A stretch of DNA of 64,000 bases from Ostreococcus lucimarinus (taxonomy: Eukaryota). Position 1 is the first letter of the stretch; each line of letters opens with the position of its first letter. Where the stretch lies: the NCBI GenBank assembly GCA_000092065.1, contig CP000586.1. One strand, given 5' to 3'. The notes beneath the pieces are model-generated. The model worked only from the letters and a program-made list of their open reading frames with translations, did no database searches and was not told the DNA's origin. The translations under genes and the position numbers were made by a program. This document shows, in pieces, positions 12,717 to 53,225 of this stretch.

Positions 12717-12841
12717 CTGCGCGTCGAACCGTCGGAGTCAGTCAAAACTCGCGCGAAGGAAGCGATCCGCGATCGCGCGCGTCTCGCGCGTCCCGCGTCG
12801 TCCCGCGTCGTCCCGCGTCGCGCGCGCGCGATCCCGCGTCC

Positions 12842-12876
<35 letters not shown>

Positions 12877-12897
12877 GCGTCGTCGTCGTCGTCGCAC
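12717..12897 (-). other. RPN8: Spliceosomal intron (181 bp) of RPN8
   Basis: Donor GTGCGACGACG, (GAC)n-rich interior, GACTGAC about 17 nt upstream of a CGCAG| acceptor. Frame continuity was checked against both ORF-track frames. Confidence 0.7.
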
Positions 12898-13029
12898 CTC
12901 GTCGCATCGTCGAAAGTGATCGACGACGCTGAGCAGCACGAGCGGGTGCACGACGACCTCGCTCGCGCTCGCGGGCGCCGCCCGCGGCGCGACGGCGGTC
13001 GCGCCGTCGCTCGGCGCCGGCGTCGACAT
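12898..13029 (-). CDS. RPN8: RPN8 exon 1 (MSTPAPSD...EVVVHPLVLLSVVDHFRRCDE)
   Basis: Encodes the conserved RPN8 N-terminal motif VVVHPLVLLSVVDHF. It ends at a GAG|GTGCGA donor, and joining it to exon 2 restores the MPN N-terminus in phase 0. The start could instead be the upstream in-frame Met at 13107. Confidence 0.7.
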
Positions 13030-13234
13030 CGGCGTCGTCGAGTCGCGCCCGCGCGCGCGACGCGCGGCGACGCGCCGACGACCGCGGCGGTCGATCGACA
13101 AACGCATACATACATGCAGGTTTTAGACACTAAAACATGTATATTCGATCGTACTTAATGCGGTCGAAACGCCATCGACGGCGCACCGCCGCGCGCGCGC
13201 CGCCGCACTTCGCGCCGCGCGTCGCGCGCGCGCC

Positions 13235-16200
13235 ATGGGCGTCCCGAGCTTCTACCGCTGGATCGCGCAGAAGTACCCGAAGATCGTCGCCGACGTCGTC
13301 GAGGACGAGCCCGTCGACGCGCTCGGACGCCGGGTGGAGCTGAACAGCGCCGAGGCGAACCCGAACGGCATCGAGTTCGACAACCTGTACCTGGACATGA
13401 ATGGCATCATACACCCGTGCTTTCACCCGGAGGACCGACCGGCGCCGACGACGGAGGAGGAGGTGTTTGAGTGCATATTCGATTACATCGATCGGTTGTT
13501 CTTGATGATACGACCGAGGAAGGTGCTGTACATGGCGATCGACGGGGTGGCGCCGCGAGCGAAGATGAATCAACAGCGAAGTCGACGGTTTCGAAGCGCG
13601 CAGGAGGCGAGAGAGAAAGCGGAGGAGGAAGAAAAGTTGAGGGAGAAGTTGATCAGGGAGGGGGTGAAGGTGCAGCCGAAACAAGAGTCGGGGGTGTTTG
13701 ATTCGAACGTAATCACGCCGGGGACGCCGTTCATGGGACGGCTGAGCGAGGCGTTAAAGTACTACGTGCACGATAAGTTGAACAACGATCCGGGATGGCG
13801 GGGAATTGAGGTTATCTTTAGCGATGCGAGCGTACCGGGGGAGGGAGAGCACAAGGCGATGCACTACATACGGCAACAAAGGGGGCTGCCGGGGGCGAAT
13901 CCGAACACGCGGCACGTCGTCTACGGTTTGGACGCGGATTTGATCATGTTGGCGCTCGCGACGCACGAGCCCCACTTTTGGATCTTGCGCGAGATTGTGT
14001 TTCAGAAGAAGGATAACGAGGCGCCGCAGACGCTGGGGCTCGGGACGGAGGAGACGAAGAAAAAGGTGGCCATCGCGCGTAAGCCGTACCAGTTGCTCAG
14101 CGTGAGCGTCTTGCGCGAATACTTGGCGTTGGACATGCGCCCTGTCGCACCGACGCCGTTCAAGCTCGACCCAGAGCGGATGTTTGACGACTTTATCTTC
14201 ATGTGTTTCTTCGTCGGAAACGATTTCTTACCGCATTCGCCGACGTTGGAAATCCGTGAGGGCGCCATCGACTTGTTGATGACGCTCTACCGAAACTGTC
14301 TTCCGACGCTCGGTGGATACCTGTGCGCGGACGGCCGTCCCAATCTCTCCATCGTCGAAAAGTTTGTGCGGCTCGTGAGTGAGCACGAGGACGCCATCTT
14401 TCAGAAGCGTGCCAAGAAGGAGGCGCGAATGCGGAGTTCAAGACAACGCGATAAACAAAAGGCGAAGGATTACTACGAGCGCCAGCGCAAAGGGAGCGGT
14501 ACCAACGTGCCGCAACACCGCGTGCTCGGTGGATCGAGAAACGCGAGTGATCGCGCGCCCGCAGCGCCGACAGAACAGCTCGTCGCGCTCGGTCGCGGAA
14601 AACCGACGCCACCTCCGAGCGCGCCGAAGACGGCGGCGGAGAACAAGAGCGCCGCGGATGCGCTGCGCGAACGATTAAAGACGCGAGGTAAGCGCGCCGC
14701 CGAAGCGACGGCTGACGTCGCGCCGGAAGCCGATACCGACGCCAAGAAGGCTAAAGTATCGGACGCGGATAAGGCTGAAAAGGACGAAAAAGCAAAGGAG
14801 TTTTGGAATCAGCTCGCGGAGAAGGCTGAATCTGAATCAGCCACGACGGTTGAAACCATCGACACCGTCGAAAGCGATGAAGTGCCGTCGCACCCTTTTG
14901 TACAATCGACGGCACCCGACGCGCAGCCCGGCGATTGGATGTGTCCCACAGGGTGCGGAAGCATGTACGCATCTAAAGGTTCGTGCTTCAGGTGCGGATG
15001 CCCACGTCCGAGCGAGGTGCGAGAGTTCAAAGCGGGCGAGGTGATGGACAGTAAATCCTTCTTGAAGCAACTTGAAGGCATCGTCAAGGCCATGGGTGAG
15101 CGCGAGGAAGAAACGGACAACATTCGGCTCGGAGAAAGTGGCTGGAAAGATCGCTATTACGAAGCAAAGATGCAGGCAACGCCACAAACGCGAGATGAGA
15201 TCATTCGGGGCATGGTCATTGAGTACGTGCGCGGCTTAATTTGGGTGTGTCGATATTACTTCGAAGGGTGTTGCTCTTGGAGTTGGTTCTACCCATACCA
15301 TTACGCCCCGTTCGCGAGTGATTTATATGACTTGAGTACGATCTCTACCGATTTTGATCTCGGCAAACCGTTCAAGCCGTTTTCGCAGCTCATGGGCGTG
15401 TTGCCGGCGGCGTCTTCGCACGCGTTGCCCGCAGCGTTCGCGCCGTTGATGTCGGACAAAGACTCTCCTATCATCGACTTTTATCCCGAAGACTTCGCGC
15501 TCGATATGAACGGGAAGCGTTTTACGTGGCAGGCCGTGGCACTGCTCCCTTGGATCGACGCCAACCGTCTGCTAGAACAAACGGAGATGCTCGAATACAC
15601 GCTCACCGCCGAGGAAAAGCGCCGAAACTCCATCAACGAGGAGGAAATATACGTCAATGCCGCGCATCCGCTCGCAAAACAGTTTCTCGAGCTCGAAGAG
15701 CGGGAAGACGAAGACGTGGAAAAAACGCTCAAGATGGATCCGAAGCTTAGTAAAGGCATGAACGCCACGCTCGTGTCGGTGAAACGCGACGCGCAGCCCA
15801 CGATGATACCGTCGCCGATGTCGAGTCGCCAAGACATCTCGAACAACAAAGTAGTCGTGGCGTCGATGCGTTTGCCGACCGATAGATTTGTGCCGCCGGT
15901 GCTGATGCCCGGTGCGGTGTTACCGACGCCTATGGTGACGGAGGCTGACTTGCCGCCGCCGCCGCAGTTGTTTCATCAGACGGACAACTACGGGCGCAAC
16001 AACAACAACAACGCGCCTCGAATCGATTACGGACGCGGGATGGCGGGCCATCCCTTGGCCGGCGGCCGAGGTGGTTTTCAAGGATCAAATCAAGACGCAC
16101 ACGCGTTGATGCACCAAAGTCTCGGTCGAGGCGTGCCGCTCGGGATGAATTATCAGCAGAGACTCCCGACTCGTACGCCGCCGCCGCCGCCGCCGGGGGG

Positions 16201-16414
16201 TCCTGCGCTACCGCAAGGGTATCCGCAAGCGTACGGCGCCGGTCGAGGCGTACCACTCGGTGGGTTTCAGCCCGGCGCGCCGCATCCCGGACCTCCCGGA
16301 CGCGGTCCGCCCGCCTCGTACGCCCCCGGCGGAAACCGCTTCGCCCCCTTCAATAACTTACCGCCGCGTTCGCGCGACCCGGCGCCGCCGCGACCGCAAA
16401 CCAAAAAACGCTAG
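13235..16414 (+). CDS. XRN2: 5'-3' exoribonuclease, XRN2/Rat1-type, with an inserted RanBP2-like zinc finger and a Gly/Pro/Arg-rich tail
   Basis: Has the XRN N-terminal catalytic motifs (MGVPSFYRWI, LYLDMNGIIHPC, GEGEHKAMHYIR, YGLDADLIML), the central conserved region (WKDRYYEAKM, CRYYFEGCCSWSWFYPYHYAPFASD), and W-x-C-x3-C-x9-C-x2-C...PRP between them. The start is an ATG. Confidence 0.9.
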   Translation: MGVPSFYRWIAQKYPKIVADVVEDEPVDALGRRVELNSAEANPNGIEFDNLYLDMNGIIHPCFHPEDRPAPTTEEEVFECIFDYIDRLFLMIRPRKVLYMAIDGVAPRAKMNQQRSRRFRSAQEAREKAEEEEKLREKLIREGVKVQPKQESGVFDSNVITPGTPFMGRLSEALKYYVHDKLNNDPGWRGIEVIFSDASVPGEGEHKAMHYIRQQRGLPGANPNTRHVVYGLDADLIMLALATHEPHFWILREIVFQKKDNEAPQTLGLGTEETKKKVAIARKPYQLLSVSVLREYLALDMRPVAPTPFKLDPERMFDDFIFMCFFVGNDFLPHSPTLEIREGAIDLLMTLYRNCLPTLGGYLCADGRPNLSIVEKFVRLVSEHEDAIFQKRAKKEARMRSSRQRDKQKAKDYYERQRKGSGTNVPQHRVLGGSRNASDRAPAAPTEQLVALGRGKPTPPPSAPKTAAENKSAADALRERLKTRGKRAAEATADVAPEADTDAKKAKVSDADKAEKDEKAKEFWNQLAEKAESESATTVETIDTVESDEVPSHPFVQSTAPDAQPGDWMCPTGCGSMYASKGSCFRCGCPRPSEVREFKAGEVMDSKSFLKQLEGIVKAMGEREEETDNIRLGESGWKDRYYEAKMQATPQTRDEIIRGMVIEYVRGLIWVCRYYFEGCCSWSWFYPYHYAPFASDLYDLSTISTDFDLGKPFKPFSQLMGVLPAASSHALPAAFAPLMSDKDSPIIDFYPEDFALDMNGKRFTWQAVALLPWIDANRLLEQTEMLEYTLTAEEKRRNSINEEEIYVNAAHPLAKQFLELEEREDEDVEKTLKMDPKLSKGMNATLVSVKRDAQPTMIPSPMSSRQDISNNKVVVASMRLPTDRFVPPVLMPGAVLPTPMVTEADLPPPPQLFHQTDNYGRNNNNNAPRIDYGRGMAGHPLAGGRGGFQGSNQDAHALMHQSLGRGVPLGMNYQQRLPTRTPPPPPPGGPALPQGYPQAYGAGRGVPLGGFQPGAPHPGPPGRGPPASYAPGGNRFAPFNNLPPRSRDPAPPRPQTKKR

Positions 16415-16482
16415 CGCATTAGTCATTCTGTACACCTAATTAGTAGTTTTGTTGTTACACGAGCTAGACGCTATAGATCAAA

Positions 16483-17073
16483 TCACTCGCGATTCGGCAG
16501 CGACGACTGATTTTGCCACGACTCCATCCGACTCGCCGTGACGAGATTCGTCAACAATTTTATCCTATCCGCCCTATTCGCCGCGTGCGCCTCCGTCAGC
16601 GCCGCCACTCTCGCCGCCATCTTCCCTCTCGCTCGTTCATACGCCCTCCTCAGATCGTCGTCGCCGTCCTCTCCCTCTCCCTCGCCTTCCTCGTTCGCGT
16701 CGCCGTCGCTCACCAGCGCGCGCGCCAACGCCTCCACCGCCGCGCTCGTCTCGTCCGTCGCCAGCGACTCCAACAGATCCCTGTCGCACGTCATCGCCAC
16801 CGGCGTCGCCAGCGCGTCGATCAGGCGAAAGTCTTCCTCGCACTGCGCCTCGCTCGTCGCCAGCGCGTCCTCGAGCGCGCGCGCGCACGCCGCGAGCGTC
16901 GCGTCGTCCGGTCGGTCGAGCGGTCGAATCGTCGTCGCGCGCGGCGGCGACGACGCGCGCTCGCGCGGCGGCGACGCCGGCGCGTGCGCGCGACCGTCCA
17001 TCGCGCCGGCGCGTCGGCGCGCGCGTCGGTGCGGCGCGACGCGCGTCGTCCGTCGAATTCGGCAATTCGGCAT
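16483..17073 (-). CDS. Hypothetical acidic protein (uncertain; could be non-coding)
   Basis: 196-aa ORF with an ATG start, lying divergent to the threonine-synthase-like gene only 25 bp from its ATG. It overlaps the low-complexity, non-ATG upstream extension of that plus-strand ORF. I recognise no homolog. Confidence 0.25.
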   Translation of the reverse strand: MPNCRIRRTTRVAPHRRARRRAGAMDGRAHAPASPPRERASSPPRATTIRPLDRPDDATLAACARALEDALATSEAQCEEDFRLIDALATPVAMTCDRDLLESLATDETSAAVEALARALVSDGDANEEGEGEGEDGDDDLRRAYERARGKMAARVAALTEAHAANRADRIKLLTNLVTASRMESWQNQSSLPNRE

Positions 17074-17098
17074 TCGGCGCGCGCGTCACACGGCGGCG

Positions 17099-18979
17099 AT
17101 GAAGTACGTGAGCACGCGCGGCGGCGCGCCGCCGACGACGTTCGTCGACGCCCTGCTCACGGGCTCGCCGCTGGACGGCGGCGCGTACGTCCCGGAGCGC
17201 GTCCCGACGATCGATTTCAAAAAGATTTTAAATTCGAGCTACGAGACGCTGTGCGTGGAAATCCTGTCGGTGTTTTGCGCGAATGGCGAGGAGTTCACGA
17301 AGGAAACGCTGCGAGAGATCGCGCACGAGGCGTGTAAGACGTTCGCGGACGACGCGATCGCGCCGGTGAAGACGCTCGGGCGAAGAGGCGCGAGAGGATG
17401 GGTGCACGCGTGCGAATTGCATCGCGGACCGACGCTGAGCGCGGAGGACGCGAGCATGCAGATGGCGGTGCGGATGATGGATCGGGCGTTGAAACTACGT
17501 GGGAAGCGAGGAAATGTGATGTGCTCGACGACGGGGGAAGAGGGGGGGGCGTTCGCGCGCGTGGCGGCGGAGATGAAGAATATGGACGCGTGGATCGTGT
17601 ACCCGGGCGACGACGGCGACGTGACCGAGCCTCAGGAACGAGAGATGACGTGTCACGTGGAGGATCACGTGCATCCGGTTAAGGTGAGCGAATGCCCGGA
17701 TGGAATGAGCGATGTGGACGCGGTCGTGATCGATGTGCTGAACGATGAGGCGTTTCGGTTGGCGAACGGGATGGTGAGCGCGAATAGCGCCAACGTGGCG
17801 CGCGTGTTGTGCTTTGTGCCGTTATTTTTTCACGCCTACGGACAAGTGCGCGCGAAGCGCGAAGAGTGGGGGAGACCCGTGGTGTTCAGTATACCGAGCT
17901 CCACGTTCGCGCTGGAGTACGCCGGTCACCTGGCGCGTTTGATGGGGTTGCCGATCACCGTCGTCGCCGCGTGCAACGCCAACGGCGCGGCGCACCGCGC
18001 CATCTCGCTCGGTGAATTGTACAAGACTGATATGGTGCACACGTCGTCGAGCGCGTTGGATGTCGTCGTGGCTGAAAACATGTGGCGGTCGCTGTACTAC
18101 GCCACTGGATCAAATCCGCTGATTTTGAGCGAGCTGCAAGACGATTTCGACGAAGACGGCGAAGTTGAATTGCCACCGAAGATGACGAGTGAGTTAAACG
18201 CCGTGTTCAAGAGCGCGGTCGTGAGCGACGAACTCATGTATAGCACGATACAGCGCGAGGAGCGCATGGGGTACTTACCCTGTCCTCAAACTGCGATCGC
18301 GATCGCGGCGCTGGAGTTGGTCGAGGACATCGCCGAGGACGTTCCGTGTGTGGCGCTCGCGGTGTCGCATCCGAGCAAGTTTCCGACCGTTATCCGTCGC
18401 GCGGTGCCGCAACTGAGCAACGGAGCTTCACATCCTACTGTGGATGGTATGAAGGGCTTGTTCCACCGCCGTCGCACGTGCTCGCTCGAAGAGCTCGAAC
18501 GCTCGTTGCGCAGAGACATCTCAGCGGTGACTTCGCTGCGCTCGCCCGCTCCGGTTAAGATCGAGCGCGTCTTACTCGCGCGCGACGAGTACGAGAAGAT
18601 TTACATGACCACCGTGATCAAGCGCAAACGATGGCGAGGTTTCGACAGTCCACTGTTCACCATCGCCTGCGCCGTCGCGGTCGCCGCGTGGGCCGCCGTC
18701 ACCACGCCGGAGACGAACCGGCAAACCGGGTCCGCGCGCGCCGCCGCGCGCGCCGCCGCCAAAGCGCGACGCGCCGCCGCCAAAGCGAGCGGCGAAAAAG
18801 CGCGAGCATTAGCCAGGACTCAGCGCCAAGCCGCGCGCGACGCCGCCAAGCTCGCCAAAATCCAAGCCGAGTCGGCGCGCGAATCCGCGCGTCCTCGCGT
18901 CTACGCGCGCGACCGCCGCGCGGCGCGTCCACCCAACGAGCACTTCGCGCACCAACCCCATAGAAACATTTATGCTTAA
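17099..18979 (+). CDS. Threonine synthase family (THR4/THNSL-like) PLP enzyme with an unusual roughly 150-aa C-terminal extension
   Basis: The N-terminus MKYVSTRGGAPPTTFVDALLTGSPLDGGAYVP and internal blocks (LHRGPTLSAEDAS, TGEEGGAFARVA, FSIPSSTFALEYAGHLARLMGLPI) match the yeast Thr4 / THNSL layout. In-frame upstream sequence to 16538 has no ATG and is Ser/Pro low complexity. The C-terminal 150 aa contain a hydrophobic helix and an Ala/Arg/Lys-rich tail. Confidence 0.75.
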   Translation: MKYVSTRGGAPPTTFVDALLTGSPLDGGAYVPERVPTIDFKKILNSSYETLCVEILSVFCANGEEFTKETLREIAHEACKTFADDAIAPVKTLGRRGARGWVHACELHRGPTLSAEDASMQMAVRMMDRALKLRGKRGNVMCSTTGEEGGAFARVAAEMKNMDAWIVYPGDDGDVTEPQEREMTCHVEDHVHPVKVSECPDGMSDVDAVVIDVLNDEAFRLANGMVSANSANVARVLCFVPLFFHAYGQVRAKREEWGRPVVFSIPSSTFALEYAGHLARLMGLPITVVAACNANGAAHRAISLGELYKTDMVHTSSSALDVVVAENMWRSLYYATGSNPLILSELQDDFDEDGEVELPPKMTSELNAVFKSAVVSDELMYSTIQREERMGYLPCPQTAIAIAALELVEDIAEDVPCVALAVSHPSKFPTVIRRAVPQLSNGASHPTVDGMKGLFHRRRTCSLEELERSLRRDISAVTSLRSPAPVKIERVLLARDEYEKIYMTTVIKRKRWRGFDSPLFTIACAVAVAAWAAVTTPETNRQTGSARAAARAAAKARRAAAKASGEKARALARTQRQAARDAAKLAKIQAESARESARPRVYARDRRAARPPNEHFAHQPHRNIYA

Positions 18980-19151
18980 CACCACGACTCGCCGCGCGAC
19001 GACTGCCGCTTCCCTTCCCTCACCGCGACACGATTTCCATCCGTCGCGTTCGAACGCCGCGTCCCGCCGCCGCAACTAACTCGCGCGCGCCGTCCCGAGC
19101 GCCGCAGTGCTCGCCGCGCGCCCGCGCCCGCGCACCGGCGGCGCGACCGAC

Positions 19152-20324
19152 ATGAGTCGATCGCGCTCGCGCTCGCGCTCGCGCTCGCGCTCGAGCGCGT
19201 CGTCGTCGTCGTCGTCGTCGCGCTCGCGCTCGCGCGACCTCGCGCGTCGCGTCGCCGCGCTGAGCGACGACGCGCTGCTCGCGCGACGCCGACGGCTGCT
19301 CGAGCGCATCGACGTCGAGCGCGAGATCGCGCGTCGCGCCGAGACGACGCTCAAGCGCGCGCGCGAGGAGGCGAGCGACGAGGAAGAGGGACAGATTCCG
19401 GGCGACGCGCGCGACGCGCCGCCGCCCGCGAAAGTCGCGCGAGGGTACGTGCCGCCGCACGCGCGCGATCGAGGCGGATCGGGCGAGAAAAACGACGGAC
19501 GAGACGATTGGCGACGCGCGGACGGACGCGCGGACGCGGGGGATTGGCGAAGGCGAGAGGGAGAGAAGGCGGCGCGGCCGAAGCTGCCGGTGCCGGGCGA
19601 ACGCGGGTTCGGGCACCGCTCGGTCGGCGTCGGACGCGGACGCGCGGTCGAGGGCGGCGGCGGCGGTCAGAAACCGTCGTCGCTCGGCGGCGGTCCCGGG
19701 ACGGAGGCGCCGGGACGCGCGCCGGTGGAACCTCGAGGACGATTCGAGGACGCGGACGCGGCGCCGAGGCCGAAGACGATTCCCGCGCCTCGAACGGTTC
19801 CCGTCCCGGCGCCGCCGCCGGTGAAGCCGAAGAGTCCGCCGCGCGCGGTCGTCGCGCCCGCGCCGGTCCCAGCGCCGCCGCCGAAAGAACCGTCGCCGGC
19901 GCCCGCGGCCGACGACGACGAGGACGACGACGATATCGAAGCCATCCAAGCCGCCGCCAAAGCCGCCAGAGCCGTCAAAGCCGCGGCGACGAAGCCCGCC
20001 GCTCCCAAGGTGGTCGAAATCGAGGTCGAGATTCCGGATAAACCAAAAGCCGACGCCCCGCGTCGATCCTCGAGGCGTTCGACGTCGCCCGAGCGCGACG
20101 CCGATCCTCCTCGTCGATCGTCCAGACGTTCCGTCTCCGTGGAGCGCCGCTCGACGAATCCGCCGCCGAGCGCCGACGGTTTGACCCCCGTCGAAGGCGA
20201 TCCCGCCAAGCTCACCGTCGTCGTTTTGAAGAAGCTCCTCACCGAGCGCGAGTTGAGCACCGCGGGCTTGAAGGCTGCCCTCGTCGAGCGCTTAAAATCC
20301 GCGTTGGCCGACGAACGCTCGTGA
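19152..20324 (+). CDS. RS-repeat / Pro-rich nuclear protein with a C-terminal SAP domain
   Basis: Has (SR)n near the N-terminus and a proline-rich centre, with a C-terminal LTVVVLKKLLTERELSTAGLKAALVERLKSAL that fits the SAP motif. The track start at 19107 is GTG; the first ATG is at 19152. Confidence 0.55.
   Translation: MSRSRSRSRSRSRSSASSSSSSSRSRSRDLARRVAALSDDALLARRRRLLERIDVEREIARRAETTLKRAREEASDEEEGQIPGDARDAPPPAKVARGYVPPHARDRGGSGEKNDGRDDWRRADGRADAGDWRRREGEKAARPKLPVPGERGFGHRSVGVGRGRAVEGGGGGQKPSSLGGGPGTEAPGRAPVEPRGRFEDADAAPRPKTIPAPRTVPVPAPPPVKPKSPPRAVVAPAPVPAPPPKEPSPAPAADDDEDDDDIEAIQAAAKAARAVKAAATKPAAPKVVEIEVEIPDKPKADAPRRSSRRSTSPERDADPPRRSSRRSVSVERRSTNPPPSADGLTPVEGDPAKLTVVVLKKLLTERELSTAGLKAALVERLKSALADERS
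19166..19235 (+). repeat. (GCGCTC)n / (GTC)n microsatellite encoding SRSRSRSR...SSSSSSS
   Basis: gcgctcgcgctcgcgctcgcgctcgcgctcgagcgcgtcgtcgtcgtcgtcgtcgtcgcgctcgcgctcgcg within the RS/SAP gene. Confidence 0.8.
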
Positions 20325-20435
20325 GCGTCGTCGTCGCATTCAATAGAACTTTATTCGTCAATGCACCATCCCGCACTTCGCGACCCCGCGCGCGCGCGAC
20401 GACGCGTCCGAACGCGACGTGACCGAACGCTCGAC

Positions 20436-21638: not shown

Positions 21639-21805
21639 CGGCGCCACGAAGAGTTCACCAGTAAACCTTAGTAAACCAACAGTACAGTTCTAGAGATATT
21701 CACTCGTTTTCCGCTCGAGATCGGCGGTCGCGTCGAGCGGTTCGCGCGGAACCGAGCGAGCGCGCCGGCGCGCCGTGCGCTGTGAAATGGGCGACCGACC
21801 GCGCA

Positions 21806-38972: not shown

Positions 38973-39028
38973 TAGTTGATGATTAAGACGAAAATACGTT
39001 ACATGCGTACTATGACACTTTAAGAGTC

Positions 39029-41046: not shown

Positions 41047-41234
41047 ATGACGGCGACGACGGCGCGCGGCGACGCGCTCCGCGTCGGCACCGCGACGCGG
41101 CGCGGGAGACGCGCGACGCGACGCGCGACGACGACGACGATTCGCGCGGCGGCGACGGCGCCGGCGCGCGCGGTCACGCGCGAGGAGTGCGTGGCGTTCG
41201 TCAGGCGGGGGTGTAAACCGAGAGAGGCGTTCAG
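41047..41234 (+). CDS. GSH1: Glutamate-cysteine ligase (plant-type GSH1), exon 1: transit peptide plus ...TREECVAFVRRGCKPREAFR
   Basis: Ends at TTCAG|GTGCGG. The encoded ...GCKPREAFR, joined to exon 2's IGTEHEKFG, reproduces the conserved plant GSH1 block GCK.KEKWRIGTEHEKFGF. The start could instead be the upstream in-frame ATG at 40834. Confidence 0.65.
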
Positions 41235-41484
41235 GTGCGGCGAGGAAAACGACGCGACACCGGGAGGCGCGCAAAGCGCGGAGGCGGGCGCGCGCGCGAC
41301 GCGCGATGGGCGAACGGGGGATGACGCTTTATCCAGACGCGCGGGACGGCGCGGGACGGCGCGCGCGGATGGCGCCGAGGACGCGCGGGGGACGAGAAGG
41401 AGACGCGCGCGATGCGCGCGCGTTCGATATCGACGCGGGGGGGGGCGAGCGCGAGGACTGACGACGCGACGGACGACGACGCAG
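41235..41484 (+). other. GSH1: Spliceosomal intron (250 bp) of GSH1
   Basis: Donor GTGCGGCGAGG, a G9 homopolymer inside the intron, and GGACTGAC 19 nt before the CGCAG| acceptor. Exon 1 ends in phase 2, which the first base of exon 2 completes. Confidence 0.7.
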
Positions 41485-42751: not shown

Positions 42752-42793
42752 GTTCTCGGACGACGGTAAAATACACGATTCTTTGTAGTATAA

Positions 42794-43552: not shown

Positions 43553-43789
43553 GCGCGAGAGGCGAACTCTGAGGCGACGGGAGCGCGCGCGTTCGCGTAC
43601 ATCCTAGATCCGTTATATTGAAAATACGGGTGCGTAGGGGCGTTTATTTGCTCTAGAAGCTTATTTCGCTAGGTTTATATCGGTACAAGGACGCCGAGAC
43701 GCCGACGCGAACGCGCCGCTCGTCGTAGAGCGACGGAGTCGACGCGATTCGCGCGCGCTCGTCTCGAGCCCACCGGACGACCGCAGTTA

Positions 43790-44170
43790 TTAGATGAGCA
43801 ACTTTTCGATGGCATCCTTCAAGTTTTGAATCTGCTGCTTCAACTGCGACCCCTCGTTCGTGGTCACCGAGCAAGAAATCACCGGTCTCGACACCCCGCA
43901 CGCGCGTCCGAGCGCCTGCTTGCTCGGCACGAAGACGTACGGCACGTTTTTATCCTCCGCCAACAGCGGCAGGTGCAGCAGAATCTCCAACGGCTCCGTG
44001 TCCGCCGCCAGCACGACGAACTCCGATATCCCTCGGTTCAGCGTCTTCGTCGCCTCGTTCGCGCCCTTCTTCAGCTGCTTGTAATTGCTCGCCTGTTGCA
44101 CGATGTCCAGAATGGTGATCGTCAATTGCGCGTCCGCGAGCGGATACGCCTTCGGGTTACCCTCAGCCAT
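43790..44170 (-). CDS. SNU13: SNU13 / NHP2-like protein 1 (L7Ae-family 15.5K U4 snRNP and box C/D protein)
   Basis: Near-identity to SNU13 ([98 protein letters not shown]). The ATG at 44168-44170 (minus strand) gives a 126-aa protein. The track ORF adds 39 upstream codons. Confidence 0.9.
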
Positions 44171-44602
44171 GACGCGTTTCGATGCGGCAACCTGTTCACC
44201 CGCGCGATTCGCCACCGCGCGCGCGTCGTCCGTCAGTCTCGCGCGTCGTCGTCGCCCTTCGCGTGCCATCCCTAGTCGTTCGCGCATTCGTCCGATCGCG
44301 TCTTTCGCGTCTTTCGCCTCCTCCCGTCGTCGCGTCGTCGTCGTCGCGCGCCGTCGTCGCCTTCGCTCTCTCCGCGTCGTCGTCGTCGTCGTCGCTCGCG
44401 CACCTCGTTCGGCTTCACTGCTCGACGACGTCCGTCGCGAGCTCGGCAGTGCGGCGCCGTCGCGCGCGCGCCGCCGGTCGATTCGTGTGCGCGACGCAGG
44501 AGGGAGTTTATTAACGAACCCATCGACGCACGAATTCGTCGCGCGTCCGTGTCGTCGCGCGAGATCGCGACGCGGATCGCGGGCGACGCTTCGCGCGGCC
44601 GA

Positions 44603-46180
44603 ATGGCGGCGCGAACGGCGCGCGGTCGAACCGCGGCGTCGCGCGGCGCGCTCGACGCGCGCGGGCGACGCGAACGGGCGAGAGGCGCGACGAAAAGCGC
44701 ACCGGGACTAGGACGGGGACGGGGACGCGAGCGACGCGCGGCGACGACGGACGACGACACGATCGTCGGCGTCGCGACGGCGGTCGTGGGCGCGGTGGGA
44801 GGCGTGGCGATCGTGCGGCTGAGCGGATCGGACGCGCGGGCGATCGGGGGGCGGGTGTTTCGACGCGCGGGCGGAGCGACGCGGGCGAGCGCGAGCGCGA
44901 ACGCGGCGAACGCGTTCGACGAGAGTCATAAGGCGACGTACGGGGTCGTCGTGGACGGTGATGGGGAGATAATCGATGAGGTGATCGCGTTGGCGTTCAT
45001 AGCGCCGCGGAGTTACACGGCGGAGGACGTGGTGGAGTTGCACTGTCACGGCGGCGCGGTGTGCGTGCAACGCGCGATGGCGCGGTGTTTGGACGAGGGC
45101 GCGCGGTTGGCGAGGAATGGGGAGTTTACGTTGCGAGCGTTTTTGAATGGGCGGTTGGATTTGACGCAGGCGGAGGCGGTTCACGCGCTGGTGAGCGCGA
45201 AGACGACGGCGGCGGCGGATAGCGCGTTGGCGGCGATGCGAGGCGGGTTGACGACGCCCGTGAGCGAGGCGAGACGCGCGTGCGTAGATTTATTAGCCGA
45301 GCTCGAGGCGAGATTGGACTTTGACGACGAAATGGTGCCTTTGGACGTGCGGGCGATCGAAGCCAAAGCCGCGGGCGCGCGAGAGACGATTCGAAAGGTG
45401 CTGACGACGGCCAAACGCGGCGCGCTCCTGGAGACGGGCGTCACCGTGGCCATCGTCGGGCGCCCAAATGTGGGCAAGTCGCGCTTATTGAACGCGCTCA
45501 CTCGAAGTGAACGCTCGATCGTGACCTCGCGCGAAGGCACGACTCGAGATGTCGTCGAGGCGTCGGTGAACATTGGTGGACTTCCCGCCACGCTCTTGGA
45601 CACGGCGGGCATACGAAGCGAAACCGACGACGAAGTCGAGAAAATCGGCGTGGAACGTTCTCGCGCCGCCGCCGCGGGCGCTGACATCGTCGTGCTCGTC
45701 GTCGACGCCGAGCGCGGATGGGTGAGTGAGGACAGCGCTATTTGGCAGAGTGAAATCGCGAATAACGCCCGCGCGCGCGGTTCATCCGTGCTCGTGGTGA
45801 ACAAGACGGACATCGCCGACGCGTCGAACGCGACGCCGCCGCCGGAAGTTCTCGAAAGCTTCAGCACCGTCGTTCACGTGAGCGCGGCGACGGGCGACAA
45901 TTTAGAACATTTAGAGCACGCCATCGTGCGCACGGTGAGCGGCGGTGAAGTCGACGCCGAGGGTGGCGCGTGGGCCGCCAATCAACGTCAGGCCGAGGCG
46001 CTGCAAAACGCGTTGGATTCGCTCGATCGTCTTCGCGACACCATCGCCGCCGACATGCCGCTCGACTTTTGGACCATAGATCTGCGCGAGGCCGCGTTCG
46101 CGCTCGGTAGCGTCACGGGCGACGACGTCACCGAGGACGTGCTCGATACGATATTCGAAAGGTTTTGCATAGGAAAGTAG
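44603..46180 (+). CDS. GTPBP3: tRNA modification GTPase MnmE/TrmE (mitochondrial GTPBP3/MSS1-type)
   Basis: N-terminal THF-binding domain ([23 protein letters not shown]), a G domain ([23 protein letters not shown]) and the C-terminal CIGK motif. The track start at 44549 is GTG; the first ATG is at 44603. The presequence is Arg-rich. Confidence 0.85.
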
Positions 46181-46218
46181 CGATTTATTGAATAAGTACG
46201 CGGGGAAATACTTACAGA

Positions 46219-48315
46219 CTAACTGTTTAATCGCCGCGCGCGTTCTGCTAAAGGAATCTGTGATATCGTATCGCTTTCATCGAAATCGAGACGACGTGCA
46301 CGCGTGGGTGATGGAAGGGGAACGTCGTCGCCCCTCAGGGATGCTCGTCGAGCCGAGCCTGATCGCGGCTCTTGCACGCCTGCGATCGTTGTTGAGGGAC
46401 TGCACCTCGGGATGGTGGACTTAATCACGTCTTGCATATCCGCACAGACGCGTAGACCTTTACCACACGATTGGCACCTCCAAGTTCTGTCATTTTGTTT
46501 AAGCGCCAGGTCATGAACTTCGAGCGTGTGCTCTGGCGGAAATGGTGCTCTACTACGAATCAACGTTTCAAGTATCTTCCCTTGCTGGTCATTGCGATAG
46601 TTCGCCGAGTTGTAGTTCCACCAGCCTCGAGGCGCATCTGGTGTAGTTTGACTCGTTCCGTCGTAGAAACTCTTCGCTACGGGAGACGTTCTCACTGCTT
46701 GCTGGTTGAATCCTGTCATCTTCAATCCGGAGAGACTACGGAGGCGAGACAACGCCACGTAGGCTTGTCCCGCGGCGAAGAAGTTTGAACAATCTACATA
46801 TGCCTCGTCGAGTGACATGCCTTGGGACTTGTGAGCCGTTACCCCCCAAGCAAGCGCGAGAGGAATCTGCTTTCGTATGTTTGAGCCGAGCCCAGCTGTT
46901 TCAAACTCGAAATCGTACGGAAGTATTGGTATGGCCTTCTCGTGAAAGTTGTTGAAAAAGACGTACGGAACAGCGATCTTGTCGTCTCGTTTCAATTGTC
47001 CTTCTAACCACTCGACTTGATCATCGAGAGCCTTTATTCCGTGCTCTAAACTCTCGGATGGGATGTCGCACGCCTTTTCCATGTTCGCCTTCATCTTTCT
47101 TATTTCGTCAAGACATATGACTGCTGACTCCATTCGCGCGATGAAACCACGCGCTCCGTTCACCAGCCGCTTCCGCGTGACGATACCATCGACAACGAGG
47201 CATACGTCCAAATTCTTCAGCATCATTACTTTTGCTCCCGTTTTCAACTCCAATTTTTGAGCGATACGGCACTTCTTCTTGGCGCTCAGGGATACCCATA
47301 AACGATGAAGCTCGCTCATGCGCCTGGCTCTCTCTTGCTCGTTATCAATATCGGGTACCTGGACTCTATCAACAGCAGTGAACGTATAACACTTAGATTG
47401 TAGAGTCATCAATGCCTTTTTGTTCACGCTCTCGGCTTTGTCGTTTGTGCCTACTATCCTCAGCGCCGAGGCTCCGACTTGCACCTCGCGCTCATTCTGC
47501 GTGTACAGCGCTTGGAATTCCTCCACCGCGCCTGGTTCGCCGGTGCGAATGTTTTTTAATGCATTGACAAATGCCATATCACCCTGCTGTCGATACACAG
47601 TCTCGAGGTACACAGTTTTGATGTTCGATTCTCGCCAAGTCCACGACTCAAACATCCACCCGCGATTCAGAAACAGCGCCGGACAGAACCCTCGCCCAGT
47701 CGCCATTCGCTCATCCGTATTATCCACCGGACCGAGTTGCAAAAAGTCACCGAAAAGTATCATTTGGATCCCACCACAGGGACGAGGATCGCTTCGAATT
47801 CGCTTCAAATGGTAGCTGAGTCTATCGAAAAGCTCGCCGCTGAGCATCGAGACTTCGTCGACGAGCAAGGCGTCGCATTCGCGCACCCGCTGCTTCGTCA
47901 AATCGCTAGCAAATCCAAACCCATCGACGGTCTTCGATAATCCCAAGCCACAGAACGCGAACAGCGTCGTCCCATTCACGGCCTCTGCCGCTATCGCCGT
48001 CGACGCCGTCGTCGCCGTCATTTTCCCCGCGCGCTTCAAACTCGTACGAATCGCCCGCAGCACCTTCGACTTCCCCGTCCCGCCCACGCCCGACACGAAC
48101 ACGTTTTCCCCGCGCAACGCGAGTTCGACGCATCGTTTCTGCGCGTCATCCAGGTCTCGCAGCGCGTCGTCGTCCTCGATCGCGTCGTTCACGGGTATGG
48201 CTAAGATCGACAACTCGCGCACGATCGTTTCGATCTCTCGTTCGCCCGCGCCGATGATGGCGTCGCGCGCGTGCGCCATCGACGCCGACGACGACCCGTC
48301 GCCGTCGCGCGTCAT
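46219..48315 (-). CDS. PIF1: PIF1-family 5'-3' DNA helicase
   Basis: PIF1 signature motifs (NVFVSGVGGTGKSKVL, LLVDEVSMLSGELF, ILFGDFLQLGPV, AWGVTAHKSQGMSLD, GQAYVALSR). I prefer the ATG at 48313-48315 (minus strand). Upstream track codons start at GTG and would overlap the divergent GST gene. Confidence 0.85.
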   Translation of the reverse strand: MTRDGDGSSSASMAHARDAIIGAGEREIETIVRELSILAIPVNDAIEDDDALRDLDDAQKRCVELALRGENVFVSGVGGTGKSKVLRAIRTSLKRAGKMTATTASTAIAAEAVNGTTLFAFCGLGLSKTVDGFGFASDLTKQRVRECDALLVDEVSMLSGELFDRLSYHLKRIRSDPRPCGGIQMILFGDFLQLGPVDNTDERMATGRGFCPALFLNRGWMFESWTWRESNIKTVYLETVYRQQGDMAFVNALKNIRTGEPGAVEEFQALYTQNEREVQVGASALRIVGTNDKAESVNKKALMTLQSKCYTFTAVDRVQVPDIDNEQERARRMSELHRLWVSLSAKKKCRIAQKLELKTGAKVMMLKNLDVCLVVDGIVTRKRLVNGARGFIARMESAVICLDEIRKMKANMEKACDIPSESLEHGIKALDDQVEWLEGQLKRDDKIAVPYVFFNNFHEKAIPILPYDFEFETAGLGSNIRKQIPLALAWGVTAHKSQGMSLDEAYVDCSNFFAAGQAYVALSRLRSLSGLKMTGFNQQAVRTSPVAKSFYDGTSQTTPDAPRGWWNYNSANYRNDQQGKILETLIRSRAPFPPEHTLEVHDLALKQNDRTWRCQSCGKGLRVCADMQDVIKSTIPRCSPSTTIAGVQEPRSGSARRASLRGDDVPLPSPTRARRLDFDESDTISQIPLAERARRLNS

Positions 48316-48423
48316 CGAGACGCGCGCGCGTCGGGCGCGACCGCCTGTGCGGCGCGCACGCGTCGAGCGCGTGGTGCCGAGTTTCGAGATGCGGCCGCAT
48401 CCCGCCGCGCGCGCGGCGCGCGC

Positions 48424-49134
48424 ATGCCGCCGACGCTCTGGACGCACACCCTGTGCCCGTACGCGCATCGCGCGTCGCTCGCGCTGTGCGAAAAGGGCCT
48501 GCGACCGCGCGCGTTCGAGCGACACGTCGACCTGTCGGACAAGCCCAAAGATTTGTTTCGAGTGAACCCGCGCGGTTTAGTGCCCGCGCTCGAGTGCGAG
48601 GACGGTGAGATCGTCACGGAGAGCTCGAGGATCATCGTCGTCGTGGACGAGCGCTTCGGCGAGCGACGATCGCTGACGCGCGGGCCGAGGGATGAGATTT
48701 TGGAGTTTGCGCGCGACGCCGACGCGGCGGGCGGCGGCTTCGTGAGCTCGGGATTGAGCTTCGTCGGCGGTGGGTGGGGCATTCGTCGCGGCATGCCGCG
48801 TCAGGGGCAGATTGAAACGTTTCAGCGGAGCGTGCGCGCGCTCGACGATCGTCTACGGGGGAGCGAGGGAAATTATTTATTCGGCGCCGACGTGAGTCTC
48901 GCGGATATAAGCATTTGGCCGTTCGCCGAGCGGTTTCAGCTCGCGATGCGCGAGTTTCAAGGGTACGACATCGCGGAAGGCGCGGAGTACTTTGCCGCAT
49001 GGCTCACGGCGATGTCTGCGCGGGACAGCGTGCGGTCGTTGCGGCCTGATGACGAGGCTTTGTTGCGGTCGTGGCGGCGCACGATGCGGCTTGATTACTT
49101 CGATTACGAAACCGCTTCTCGGGAGTCACCCTGA
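48424..49134 (+). CDS. Glutathione S-transferase, omega/lambda/DHAR-like class (CPYA active site)
   Basis: Thioredoxin-fold N-terminus with CPYAHR (LWTHTLCPYAHRASLALCEKGL...VPAL) and a GST C-terminal domain. The ATG at 48424 lies about 108 bp from the divergent PIF1 ATG. Confidence 0.7.
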   Translation: MPPTLWTHTLCPYAHRASLALCEKGLRPRAFERHVDLSDKPKDLFRVNPRGLVPALECEDGEIVTESSRIIVVVDERFGERRSLTRGPRDEILEFARDADAAGGGFVSSGLSFVGGGWGIRRGMPRQGQIETFQRSVRALDDRLRGSEGNYLFGADVSLADISIWPFAERFQLAMREFQGYDIAEGAEYFAAWLTAMSARDSVRSLRPDDEALLRSWRRTMRLDYFDYETASRESP

Positions 49135-49165
49135 TCGTTAGAATTGTTGTGCACATTAAAACACA

Positions 49166-50119
49166 CTAGCTATTTGACGCCGATTTCGCCTTAAGCGTGG
49201 CCCATTGCAAGTGAAGCTGCTTTTGCAGCTCGGGGACGATGTCGACTCCGGTTTGGATGGCGCGCAAAATCACTGAAACGTTTGTCTTTTCGTCTTTCCG
49301 TAGCGCCTCTATATCTTCGCCGTACGCCTCGATGAACGCCTCACGATACATCTTTGCAAACTCTGTGGCGTCGTCGTCGTCGTCACCACCAGTCGCACCC
49401 GCGGTAGATTCCTGCTTCTCCAAGGCATCCATCGCCGCCTGCGCGCGCCCAAAGACCACGTTGTCGTGTTTGGCGATCGAGTCCCACATTCGACACTGAA
49501 AGTTTGCCGGATCCATGTGATCAACCATGACGTTCGACGACTTTCGCGCGCGTAAATCATCTTCTAAGGACAAGCTCGTCTCCAGCAACGTATCTCGCGC
49601 GCCCATGAGGGATAAATTCTTTCGCAGCGCCTTTTTAATAACCGCGCCGACGCGCATACTGAGTTCCTTGCACGCCTTTTCCATCACCTCTTCCTTCCCA
49701 TCTTTCTCTAACTTCGCCCTCGAGCTCGCGCTTAAGCACTCCGTCGTCGTGTATCTATCAACAGCGGCTCTCAGAGCCTCTCTCGCGCGCCTGAACTCTT
49801 CGCTCGCGTCGTCCTCTCCGACCGTCGCTTCGTCTTCGCTCGCGTCCGACGACTCGTCCGCGCTCGACTCCTCCTCTTCGCTCGTCGTCCCCGCCGAAGC
49901 CGACCTCTCACGCGTCGACATGACCGTATCCATCGCTTCTTTTTCGTCGTCGTCGTCGTCATCGTCATCGTCGCTCGCGCTCGGCGTCTTCCTCCGCGCC
50001 TTTTTACTCTTCTCCTTTTTCTCCTTTTCCTTTTTGCTCTTCTTTTCCTTTTTCGCCTTTTTCGCCTTCGGTTCGCGCGACGGCAGCGCCTCGCTCGCGC
50101 GCTCGCGCGTGCGCGTCAT
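49166..50119 (-). CDS. Hypothetical Lys/Glu/Asp-rich (nucleolar-type?) protein
   Basis: An N-terminal KAKKAKKEKKSKKEKEKKEK run and poly-Asp, followed by a less-biased C-terminal 180 aa (…FAKMYREAFIEAYGEDIEALRKDEKTNVSVILRAIQTGVDIVPELQ). The track start at 50146 is GTG; the first ATG is at 50119. I could not confidently assign a family. Confidence 0.4.
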   Translation of the reverse strand: MTRTRERASEALPSREPKAKKAKKEKKSKKEKEKKEKSKKARRKTPSASDDDDDDDDDEKEAMDTVMSTRERSASAGTTSEEEESSADESSDASEDEATVGEDDASEEFRRAREALRAAVDRYTTTECLSASSRAKLEKDGKEEVMEKACKELSMRVGAVIKKALRKNLSLMGARDTLLETSLSLEDDLRARKSSNVMVDHMDPANFQCRMWDSIAKHDNVVFGRAQAAMDALEKQESTAGATGGDDDDDATEFAKMYREAFIEAYGEDIEALRKDEKTNVSVILRAIQTGVDIVPELQKQLHLQWATLKAKSASNS

Positions 50120-50487
50120 CGCGATCGGCGTCGTCTCCTTCACCACGCCCTCGTCGCCCGTCTGTCGCGCCGCCTGCGTCGTCGTGAAGCAAAAAGTTGG
50201 TCAGAACGGCGGCTCGTCGGGACGCGTCGCCGGGCGCTCGTCAGCGTCGTCGCGCGCGCGCGAGCCGGCGCACCTGAAGCATGCGGGCGATCTCCGCTAA
50301 ACCGCCCTGGTCTCGCAAGTTCTGCGCCATGGTCGAAGCGGACTGACGCGCGCGAAGTGCGGACGGCGGTTGGGGCGGGACGAGACGCGGAGCGGTTGAC
50401 GCGAAGCGGTAAAACGGTACATGTGCGTTGCATTTCATCGCGCGCGTCGCGCGTCGCTGGATTTTGAGAACAAAACAGAGGGCGTGA

Positions 50488-50988
50488 CTACTTTCGCACC
50501 AGCGCGGTCTCCTCCTTGACGACGAAGAAATCCGTCTTCGGAAGCGTCAACGCGCCGATGACGCCGTGCACTTGCAAGTTCAACTCGGTCCCATCCCGGT
50601 ACAACGAAAACGGAGCCTCGATGGACAGGTTATCCGCAATCGGTCGCGTCGGTCGCAGATCGATCGATCGTCCTTGCTGAATCGCCGCCGCCAACCCGAC
50701 CCCCTTCATCGCCGCGCTCTGGGGCATGGCGTCAAAATTAATATACGGCCTTCCGTCCCAACTCACTCCGACCCCGACGTTCACCTCCGTGCGCGCGATG
50801 CCCTCTAAAACGTCAAACTTTTTTTGCAACTCAACGCCCGTGACGTCGACCGCGATCTTCCCAGGCTCCCCGAGCTCGTGCTCGAGCTTGGCGAACACGT
50901 GCGCCTGCTTGGAAGTGTAATCCGCCATGGCGCCGACGGTGACGGACGTCTTATCGTCCACCTTTTCGTGTCCGCGCAGATTGAACGT
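50488..50988 (-). CDS. Hypothetical protein, exon 2 (TFNLRGHEKVDDKTSVTVGAMADYTSKQ...ALVRK)
   Basis: The track ORF 50488..50961 starts at GTG. The frame is open upstream to a TAG that immediately follows a GGTAG| acceptor-like site. It is non-repetitive with a beta-rich pattern. The family is unknown. Confidence 0.45.
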   Translation of the reverse strand, partial: TFNLRGHEKVDDKTSVTVGAMADYTSKQAHVFAKLEHELGEPGKIAVDVTGVELQKKFDVLEGIARTEVNVGVGVSWDGRPYINFDAMPQSAAMKGVGLAAAIQQGRSIDLRPTRPIADNLSIEAPFSLYRDGTELNLQVHGVIGALTLPKTDFFVVKEETALVRK

Positions 50989-51138
50989 CTACCATCACGC
51001 ATCGTTCGTTTCGTCAGTCCGTCGTTCGTTCGCGTCGCTCGTTCGTTCGCGTCTCGCGTCTCGCGTCTCGCGTCTCGCGTGGGAATTGAAGTTGAAATTC
51101 ATCGCGCGCGCGTCGCGTCGCGTCGCGTCGTCGCGCAC

Positions 51139-51324
51139 CTTTGAGACTTTCAGCCCCCACACCGGAACATCGTGTAAACTCACGCGCGGCACCTTTATCG
51201 TGCGCCACCACGGCGCGTCGCCGCTCTGCGCCGCGCCCGCGCTCGTCGCGGCGTCATCGCCGTTGGCGTTCGATCTCGCGGCGGACGGTTTCGTCGCGCT
51301 GTTCGGAGACGCGATGTCGCTCAT
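51139..51324 (-). CDS. Hypothetical protein, putative exon 1 (MSDIASPNSA...VPVWGLKVSK)
   Basis: ORF with an ATG start (track 50995..51324) whose codon 62 is followed by GTGCGCGACGACG, the same donor form seen in the other introns. Joining it to 50988 is in phase 0. The 150-bp intervening sequence contains (CGCGTCT)4 and GGACTGAC 24 nt before the acceptor. The join is inferred, not proven. Confidence 0.35.
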
Positions 51325-51658
51325 CGCGCGTTCGGTCGAGTTCGAGCGATGCGAACGCGCGTGCGGTGGGAGAGTCGCGAGCGAGACGCGTGCGCGTCGC
51401 GCGTCGAGGTGTGCGGACGGCGGGACGCGAGGATTCGCGCTAGACGAGACGACTCGAGAGCGCGCGAGCGCGGCTCGAAGAGGCGCACGCGCGAACGAGT
51501 GAATAAAGAACTAATTCGTTCTCGAATTACAATGCGAAAGCTCACTAAGTGCTGCTGACGCACCATCAAACGACGCCTTCACCACCTCAAAGTCGCGAGC
51601 GCGCGCTGACCAGCGCGCGCGCCGACAAAACACCCCCAGATTCCGACGGAAAAAACGT

Positions 51659-52459
51659 TTAAATCTTAACCGTGGCGCGCTGGGCGAGCTCGCGCGCGAT
51701 GATACGCTCGCGAGCGGCGGTCTTCGCTTGCGACTTCACACCCATGATACCACCACCCCACGTTCTGGACGTCTTTTGGAAGACATCGTTGTAGGAAGCC
51801 TTGATGGCTTCGACGAGCTTGGAGAACTCGAGCTTGTCTTCATTCTTGATCGCGGTGAGCGCCAAGGCGGTGGCGGTCTTCTTGTGAACGACCGCACCGA
51901 GACGAGCCTTACCCTTGACGATGCAGTACGGCACGTTCATTTGCTTGCACAAAGCCGGCAACCACACGACGAGTTCGACCGGGTCGACGTCGTGCGCGAT
52001 GACGACGAGTTGCGCCTTGCCTTGCTCGATGAGGTAGGTGATGTGGTTGATACCAAACTTCACCACGACCGGCTTCTTACTCTCAACATCGGCACCCGCG
52101 GCCTCGGCTTGCGCCATACCCGCGAGGCGTTCCTTCTTTTGCGCCGCGTCCTCCGGTCGGTACTTCATGAGCAGCTTGAACAAATTCGTCGCCAAGTTTT
52201 TATCCAACGTATTGTTGAACTGGTTCACAGCCGGCGGCACCTTCAATCGCTTTTGCAGCACCCGTCGCTGACGTTGAATGCGCACATACTTCGGCCACTT
52301 CACGTAACGGTTCAGCGGCGTCTTCACCGGCAGCGAGTTCCCGATGCCGAAATTCTTCGGCCGGCGCTCGAACAACGGGTTCGTCGGGCCCTTCGGTTCC
52401 TTCTTCGGTTGCTTCGCCTTGATCGCGGCCGGCGCGGGCGCGGGCTTCTTGCTCGGAGC
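51659..52459 (-). CDS. RPL7A: 60S ribosomal protein L7a (eL8), exon 2 ([10 protein letters not shown]...)
   Basis: Near-identity to plant RPL7a ([80 protein letters not shown]). The frame extends 28 codons upstream of the track's TTG start to a TTTCGCAG| acceptor. There is no in-frame ATG before an upstream TGA, so the initiator must be on a separate exon. Confidence 0.92.
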
Positions 52460-52884
52460 CTGCGAAAACAGAAAAAGTGTGCGCGCGCGTCAGTCCACCG
52501 TTCGCGCGATGCGTCGCCCGCGTCGCCGCGTCCACTCGCGTCCACCCCCGCCGCGTTCGCGCCTAGGGCTTTCCCGATCCCCCGCCCCCCCGCGTCCGTC
52601 CTCCCGTCGCCCGCGATCGACCGCGCGCCCGCCGCGTCGCGCCGCGCGATCGATCGCGTCGATTTCATCCATCCGCCCGCGCGCCGCGCGCGCGCGCCCG
52701 ACCGCGACGCCGTTCGCCCGCGCGATCGCCCGCGCGTCCGTCGCGCCCGCGACCCTACCCGCGGCGTCCCATCGTCGCGCCGTCGTCGTCGCGCGCGCGC
52801 CGTCGCGCCGCGCGCGCGCCGTCGTTCGCGTCGCCGCCATCGTCGCCATCGTTCGCGTCGTCGCGTCGCGTCGTTCGCGCGCAC

Positions 52885-53189: not shown

Positions 53190-53225
<36 letters not shown>

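Follow-up and report, generated by a model that had tools for sequence, protein, structure and literature searches.

Introns in a GC-rich stretch of the Ostreococcus lucimarinus genome carry the strict splice signals published for the species

We asked whether a set of unusual gene interruptions in the marine green picoeukaryote Ostreococcus lucimarinus are genuine introns, and whether they are built to a common plan. A preliminary description of a 64,000-nucleotide (nt) stretch of contig CP000586.1 (assembly GCA_000092065.1; hereafter the window) had placed introns in RPN8, GSH1, a hypothetical gene, and RPL7A. It had read them as products of a lineage-specific splice consensus in a GC-rich, intron-poor genome. 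This reading is supported by a match to the published consensus of the species, and the interruptions are almost certainly spliceosomal introns of the ordinary U2 type (GT-AG), probably in the normal compartment of the O. lucimarinus nuclear genome, which is high in GC and poor in introns. The strict GTGCG, GACTGAC, and YAG consensus (Y, pyrimidine) was already published for O. lucimarinus in 2008, so the finding is correct and not new.

Junctions of the four introns

Intron signals were read directly on the sense strand, which is the minus strand for RPN8, the hypothetical gene, and RPL7A and the plus strand for GSH1. The four introns are as follows, with a slash marking the splice site within a sequence.

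12897..12717, minus strand: intron 1 of RPN8 (26S proteasome lid subunit), 181 nt, phase 0, after codon 44; gacgag/GTGCGAC, TTGACTGACTC, CGCAG/; GACTGAC at 12743..12737.
41235..41484, plus strand: intron of GSH1 (plant-type glutamate-cysteine ligase), 250 nt, phase 2; gttcag/GTGCGGC, AGGACTGACGA, CGCAG/; GACTGAC at 41456..41462.
51138..50989, minus strand: intron of the hypothetical gene (228-residue protein without a Pfam domain), 150 nt, phase 0; tcaaag/GTGCGCG, CGGACTGACGA, GGTAG/; GACTGAC at 51019..51013.
52884..52460, minus strand: intron of RPL7A/eL8, 425 nt, phase 0, directly 3′ of the start codon; gacatg/GTGCGCG, TGGACTGACGC, a T-rich stretch, CGCAG/; GACTGAC at 52495..52489.

Direct reading confirmed the coordinates of all four, their G/GTGCG donors, their (G)GACTGAC motifs, and the use of the first YAG after the motif. 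From the last base of GACTGAC, the intron runs on for another 20, 22, 24, or 29 nt, close to the earlier estimate of 15–29 nt. Interiors are of low complexity and rich in CG and GAC, as had been described, and are made up of (GAC)n, (CG)n, and short GC-rich tandem repeats. The intron of the hypothetical gene has an in-frame TGA close to its 3′ end, and the coding part of RPL7A exon 1 is the ATG alone.

The GSH1 junction was recovered at base resolution. The spliced protein (484 residues) is identical to XP_001418312.1, its join (...CKPREAF/RIGTEHEKFG) lies within a gap-free alignment to plant glutamate-cysteine ligase structures, and a public contig (L018; 1562 nt) reads ...GGCGTTCAG/GATCGGGACG..., with position 41234 joined directly to 41485. 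For RPL7A, five independent contigs of ∼1 kb (L005–L009) read ...ACGACGACATG/GCTCCGAGC and are colinear with the window through exon 2; one of them (L009) ends in a 24-nt 3′ poly(A) tail that is not templated by the genome. The spliced product aligns over its full length to eL8 structures. Given the spliced contigs and the poly(A) tail of L009, the ATG-only coding exon of RPL7A is confirmed.

The spliced product of the hypothetical gene (228 residues) is identical to XP_001418560.1. Two members of its 90% identity cluster, both taken as transcript-derived, run uninterrupted through the join (...GLKVSK/TFNLRGH...): P0017, a UniRef entry from Ostreococcus sp. ‘lucimarinus’, and P0018, a ‘merc’ entry from run ERR1712216. 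P0018 additionally translates noncoding sequence of the window upstream of the start codon. The two calls that the preliminary description had trusted least, the ATG-only RPL7A exon and the join of the hypothetical gene, are now among the best supported, through spliced contigs and transcript-derived proteins.

The spliced RPN8 protein aligns across the join to the spinach and human proteins, with an indel of one or two residues in a variable loop, and without gaps to Micromonas orthologs; its Pfam JAB domain spans the join. Orthologous introns occupy this codon position in three further lineages of Ostreococcus (contigs L012, L013, and L014). These keep GTGCGCG or GTACGCA, (T/G)GACTGACG, and CAG, and their interiors cannot be aligned. 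A contig from a fourth other Ostreococcus lineage (L015) carries the spliced form, reading CGACGAG/GGTGATGAGGAG. Conserved position and signals together with unalignable interiors are the pattern expected of old introns in which selection acts on the signals alone. At RPN8, contigs L001–L004 match the window completely or almost completely; they come from the same population and are uninformative on intron conservation.

Aligning the spliced proteins to RPN8, GSH1, and eL8 orthologs was a check that had been proposed at the outset, and the joins held in all three. Unspliced messenger RNA (mRNA) or junctions at other positions would have told against the introns, and the outcome was the opposite: The joins in GSH1, RPL7A, and the hypothetical gene are exact. 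Overall, exact removal of the segment and joining of the exons was observed for GSH1, RPL7A, the hypothetical gene, and a YGGT-family gene described below, and for RPN8 through the sister-lineage contig only.

Several side observations concern these genes. Contigs L005–L008 match the genome for only ∼10–12 nt 5′ of the RPL7A ATG (52885..52900) and continue into unrelated sequence, which in L005 we take, by eye, to resemble the RuBisCO large subunit; this divergence suggests a very short RPL7A 5′ untranslated region (UTR) with chimeric assembly upstream. At the other end of the gene, the poly(A) site lies at ∼51504 according to L009, and other contigs extend to 51366 (51366..51504, minus strand). 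The P0018 transcript starts upstream of ∼51417, and therefore RPL7A, at its 3′ end, overlaps or abuts the start of the hypothetical gene at the 5′ end of the latter. P0018 also lacks nine residues (AAMKGVGLA; residues ∼154–162, ∼50500..50530, minus strand) that are flanked by AA on both sides, probably through a 27-nt deletion polymorphism. The RPN8 intron donor in L014 is GTACGCA in place of GTGCG. In L012–L014, prokaryotic gene callers start the RPN8 open reading frame (ORF) within the intron, so that the predicted proteins begin ...ARARQ/GDEENK, in which Q is the CAG acceptor.

A composite motif and further introns

We quantified how often the signals occur in the window, whose GC content of 62.5% and density of about one intron per 8 kb are in keeping with the normal compartment of the genome. 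Neither word is enriched when counted alone (GACTGAC: nine copies versus 8.4 expected; GGTGCG: 73 copies versus 67.9 expected). We then defined a composite motif as G/GTGCG, followed on the same strand by GACTGAC within 600 nt and by YAG 10–45 nt later. The composite motif occurs seven times in the 64 kb, compared with 0.92 ± 0.94 times in 300 dinucleotide-preserving shuffles (maximum of five; none of the 300 reached seven). Of the nine GACTGAC copies on the two strands (128 kb in all), seven fall, in sense orientation, within ∼1.6 kb that is intron-like. Among the seven composite matches, five have transcript-type support, one is supported by homology, and one is still a candidate, making the composite motif a good practical predictor of introns in the O. 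lucimarinus genome.

Beyond the four introns above, this search yielded three of the following segments, and a relaxed scan yielded the one in the RSA3-like gene.

57443..57568, plus strand: intron of a C2-domain gene, 126 nt, phase 1, after codon 8, composite match; ATG/GTGCGCG, GACTGAC at 57530..57536, GGCAG.
59836..60084, plus strand: intron of a YGGT/Ycf19-family gene, 249 nt, phase 1, in frame and stop-free, composite match; AAG/GTGCGCG, GACTGAC at 60059..60065, GACAG.
50273..50174, minus strand: annotated intron of a ‘Ribosome assembly protein 3’-like (RSA3-like) gene, 100 nt, phase 0, after codon 19, relaxed scan; CAG/GTGCGCC, TCTGAC (50205..50200) or GCTGAC, a short T-rich tract, CGCAG.
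44403..44192, minus strand: candidate 5′ UTR intron of SNU13, 212 nt, composite match; GAG/GTGCGCG, GAGACTGACGG, GACTGAC at 44238..44232, AACAG 21 nt 5′ of the ATG.

The four concordant introns of the preliminary description thus all stood, and its tally of four out of four was too modest, since three or more further introns and one candidate share the donor. For the YGGT gene (59787..60632, plus strand), position 59835 is followed directly by 60085 in contig L010, whose spliced product has 198 residues. Because the 249-nt intron is in frame and stop-free, gene callers report an unspliced 281-residue read-through ORF on 347 contigs. If this intron were retained, the presumed transit peptide would be 83 residues longer. 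In the C2-domain gene, the join MRGKLEVN/VLSAIRLRDTQTFGKQDPY restores the first C2 strand, so that the Pfam C2 match begins at profile position 1, and a homolog (P0232; 48% identity) reads RRGTLEVNILNAIRL uninterrupted at the join. The spliced RSA3-like protein (354 residues) is identical to XP_001418559.1. The SNU13 candidate was found in two closely related strains with identical signals and flanks and with small indels in the interior only.

These results bear on the possibility that frameshifts, misassembly, or pseudogene lesions account for the interruptions, and that their shared motifs are coincidental in GC-rich sequence. The chance frequency of each motif taken alone would fit this explanation, as would the low complexity of the interiors, in which sequencing errors are common. 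However, the composite motif lies far above chance, the same genomic sequence is identical across several metagenome assemblies, orthologous introns are present in sister lineages, and independent contigs lack the exact segments, base for base, in GSH1, RPL7A, and YGGT. The spliced contigs refute an origin in error or frameshift, to which we attach virtually no probability.

Other signals and sites were less informative. GACTGAC appeared to be depleted outside introns (two copies versus 7.9 expected under a dinucleotide model), but this is not significant under a maximal-order Markov model, which expects 3.7. On the sense strand, the introns other than the RSA3-like one are T-poor and G-rich (A 19%, C 30%, G 43%, T 7%). 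We considered T-depletion (T 7.4% in introns) as an intron detector and discarded it as unspecific, since T-poor 100-nt windows are common in low-complexity coding sequence. Further ACT[GA]AC or CT[GA]AC sites near donors (at 866, 5901, 10393, 8043, 7214, 19075, 50341, and 22774) were taken as chance occurrences because they lie inside long ORFs, are antisense, or lack a YAG or a donor.

A last candidate, at the 5′ end of the bromodomain gene (52975..53428, plus strand; 454 nt, T-poor and GAC-rich), reads GTT/GTGCGCG ... CCTGAC ... CGCAG and has an intron-like look, with flanks ATGATCCGTGTT/ at the donor and CCTGACGAAGACGCAG/ at the acceptor. We treated it as probably not an intron because the branch-to-AG gap is only ∼9 nt, the initiator Met of XP_001418315.1 lies inside the segment, and there is no record of the spliced protein.

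Shared properties of the eight introns

We compared the properties of the eight introns, counting the four original ones, those of the C2, YGGT, and RSA3-like genes, and the SNU13 candidate. All eight start with GT, end with YAG, and have a GTGCG donor preceded by G. CTGAC is present in all eight, 20–40 nt before the intron end (motif-to-AG gap of 17–38 nt); ACTGAC and GACTGAC are each present in seven, and GACTGACG is present in five. The acceptor is the first YAG downstream from the branch motif in every case, and it reads CGCAG in five. A polypyrimidine tract is present in the RPL7A and RSA3-like introns and absent from those of GSH1 and YGGT. Lengths range from 100 to 425 nt with an A+T content of ∼27%, and all eight introns lie in the 5′ UTR or in the first ∼190 nt of the coding sequence.

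Such uniformity could also arise by descent if the introns had spread as mobile ‘introner elements’ of one family, like those of Micromonas pusilla CCMP1545. Micromonas introner elements do have AG/GYGCGT donors, one class with a GACTGACG branch motif (PMC3879977), and all interiors in the window are superficially alike in being rich in GAC and CG. But with a low-complexity filter there is no pairwise similarity among the eight introns, and the unfiltered matches are only (GAC)n and (CG)n repeats in multiple registers. The spread of lengths is also against a common template, and the RPN8 intron occupies the same position in at least four lineages with unalignable interiors, making it old and not a recent insertion. 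We consider the introner explanation extremely unlikely.

Comparison with published intron classes

The signals described here correspond to those of an intron class already characterized in this species. From 319 O. lucimarinus introns outside chromosome 2 confirmed by expressed sequence tags (ESTs), Irimia and Roy (2008; PLoS Genet 4:e1000148, PMC2483917) derived an atypical donor consensus, GTGCGTG (4.8 bits), with ACTGAC in 87.2% of introns, GACTGACG in 66.5%, a preference for CGCAG, and a broad peak of branch-to-AG distances at ∼20–35 bp; the chromosome-2 introns contrast with these by their weak signals. The introns in the window share the GTGCG core, ACTGAC and GACTGACG, the CGCAG preference, the spacing, the low density, and the high GC content of the non-chromosome-2 class. 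They differ in mostly having C for T at donor position +6 and in one intron with TCTGAC or GCTGAC, which is within the published 87% for ACTGAC. Nothing here goes beyond the biology described by Irimia and Roy (2008); the main value is one of validation, in that a reading of raw sequence recovered a real, unusual splice consensus with exact coordinates.

A similar donor and branch motif are found in the canonical introns of Micromonas, a sister genus within the Mamiellophyceae, in which Verhelst et al. (2013; PMC3879977) reported a donor of AG/GTGCGT and a branch motif of NCTGAC and cited GACTGACG as the known Ostreococcus branch motif. There, too, these introns coexist with a low-GC outlier region that has different introns. 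The branch-to-acceptor distance is longer in Micromonas (43–52 bp; PMC3879977) than in the window (∼20–40 nt), and Micromonas CCMP1545 has, in addition, thousands of repeated introner elements, of which the window introns are none. A more distant parallel is provided by the introns of hemiascomycete yeasts (GTATGT...TACTAAC...YAG), which are alike in having a near-invariant, extended donor and branch site, a 5′ bias, and use of the first YAG. In yeasts, too, ribosomal protein genes often have an intron immediately after the ATG or close to it, and a long polypyrimidine tract is not required. The yeast signals are GTATG and ACTAAC in AT-rich introns, whereas those in the window are GTGCG and ACTGAC in GC-rich ones, and the likeness is convergent, not a product of common descent. 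The O. lucimarinus consensus is a textbook case of convergent, ‘strict’ signals, in an intron-poor genome with another, lax class of introns on one of its chromosomes.

Two other intron types were rejected. The introns of BOC1 and other outlier chromosomes of Mamiellophyceae are ∼40–65 nt long and AT-rich, with no discernible branch motif (PMC3879977). The introns in the window are 100–425 nt long and have an A+T content of ∼27% and a strong branch motif, so they are not of this outlier type. Nor are they U12-type introns, which have a donor of (A/G)TATCCTT and a branch site of TCCTTAAC; the window donors are GTGCG and the branch sites CTGAC.

Splicing model and points of doubt

How might such signals be recognized? 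Under a model of ordinary U2-type splicing, the few introns that remain would keep near-invariant, extended signals, as in yeasts and other intron-poor eukaryotes. Judging from general knowledge of the spliceosome, the donor AG/GTGCG(C/T)G would pair with U1 and then with U6 small nuclear RNA (snRNA), and the branch site (G)ACTGAC(G) would act as a strong CTRAY box pairing with U2 snRNA, with the A of CTGAC as the putative branch nucleotide. The first YAG, often CGCAG, ∼20–40 nt 3′ of the branch site would then become the acceptor, presumably selected by scanning, and the low-complexity, GC-rich interiors would be unconstrained.

Alternatively, the high-GC genome could be served by snRNAs or a spliceosome of its own, either co-evolved or present as a second set, apart from the machinery for the short AT-rich introns of the outlier chromosome. 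This would explain two atypical features, the C at donor position +4 and the extended branch site. Irimia and Roy raised the idea on the grounds that two intron classes with very different signals occur in one cell, but they favored a single spliceosome, with only single snRNA copies found in O. tauri (PMC2483917). The window is silent on the question, as it contains no snRNA gene: Rfam and tRNA scans of its sequence, in which snRNA genes and intron-hosted RNAs were sought, were both empty. In addition, GTGCG retains G+1, U+2, and G+5, and on general grounds G+3 can wobble-pair with U1. We regard a separate machinery as very unlikely and return to ordinary U2-type splicing.

Several observations weigh against this assignment or limit its reach. 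Donor position +6 is C in six of the eight introns, A in one, and G in one, where the published consensus has T, so that GTGCGCG prevails; C is also found in two of the three orthologous RPN8 introns. With only eight introns and at a weakly conserved position, this difference is within sampling noise, and we read nothing into it. The RSA3-like intron is the sole branch-motif exception among the eight, without ACTGAC, and the support for its junction is the gene model. The SNU13 5′ UTR intron is an unverified candidate, to which only the motif and the interior strain indels point. No transcript was found for the C2-gene or SNU13 junctions, and a search of metagenome contigs with the RPN8 exon–exon 23-mer found no same-species transcript. 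We infer from contig structure that the short spliced contigs derive from RNA, with a poly(A) tail in L009 alone.

The RPN8 23-mer had a single match (L011), a bacterial contig of 68% GC unlike either the window or RPN8, which we attributed to chance.

The GTGCGCG preference could reflect coevolution with a divergent U1 or U6 snRNA, or a genome-wide composite scan could yield a sizeable number of unannotated 5′ exons and genes, of the kind seen in the window with the C2 gene, exon 1 of YGGT, and the ATG-only RPL7A exon; both ideas are speculative and, in our estimate, improbable. If one of them were true, the numbers of introns and genes counted in this model picoeukaryote would have to be revised.

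Gene models in the window

We also examined how existing annotation handles these genes. Five proteins encoded in the window are identical to GenBank entries of O. lucimarinus CCE9901 from a contig of 818,664 bp, with exact matches including SNU13 (XP_001418557.1) and the bromodomain protein (XP_001418315.1), and the sequence of the window is abundant in marine metagenome assemblies. The expectation that gene finders would miss these introns was borne out in part. GenBank models hold the introns of GSH1 and the hypothetical gene exactly, but the YGGT model (XP_001418318.1) is cut to 91 residues and starts at an internal Met, and no spliced RPL7A, RPN8, or C2 protein was found under an NCBI accession. 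The composite motif exposes weak gene models of the 2007 era, namely the truncated YGGT and the unfound spliced RPL7A, RPN8, and C2 proteins.

The C2-domain gene (57418..58401, plus strand) has no NCBI-sourced protein among its close matches and may be unannotated in GenBank. The C-terminal half of its protein carries tandem repeats of VVQQQQQQPAY, whose copy number varies in environmental variants, with P0217 and P0218 short by at least one unit.

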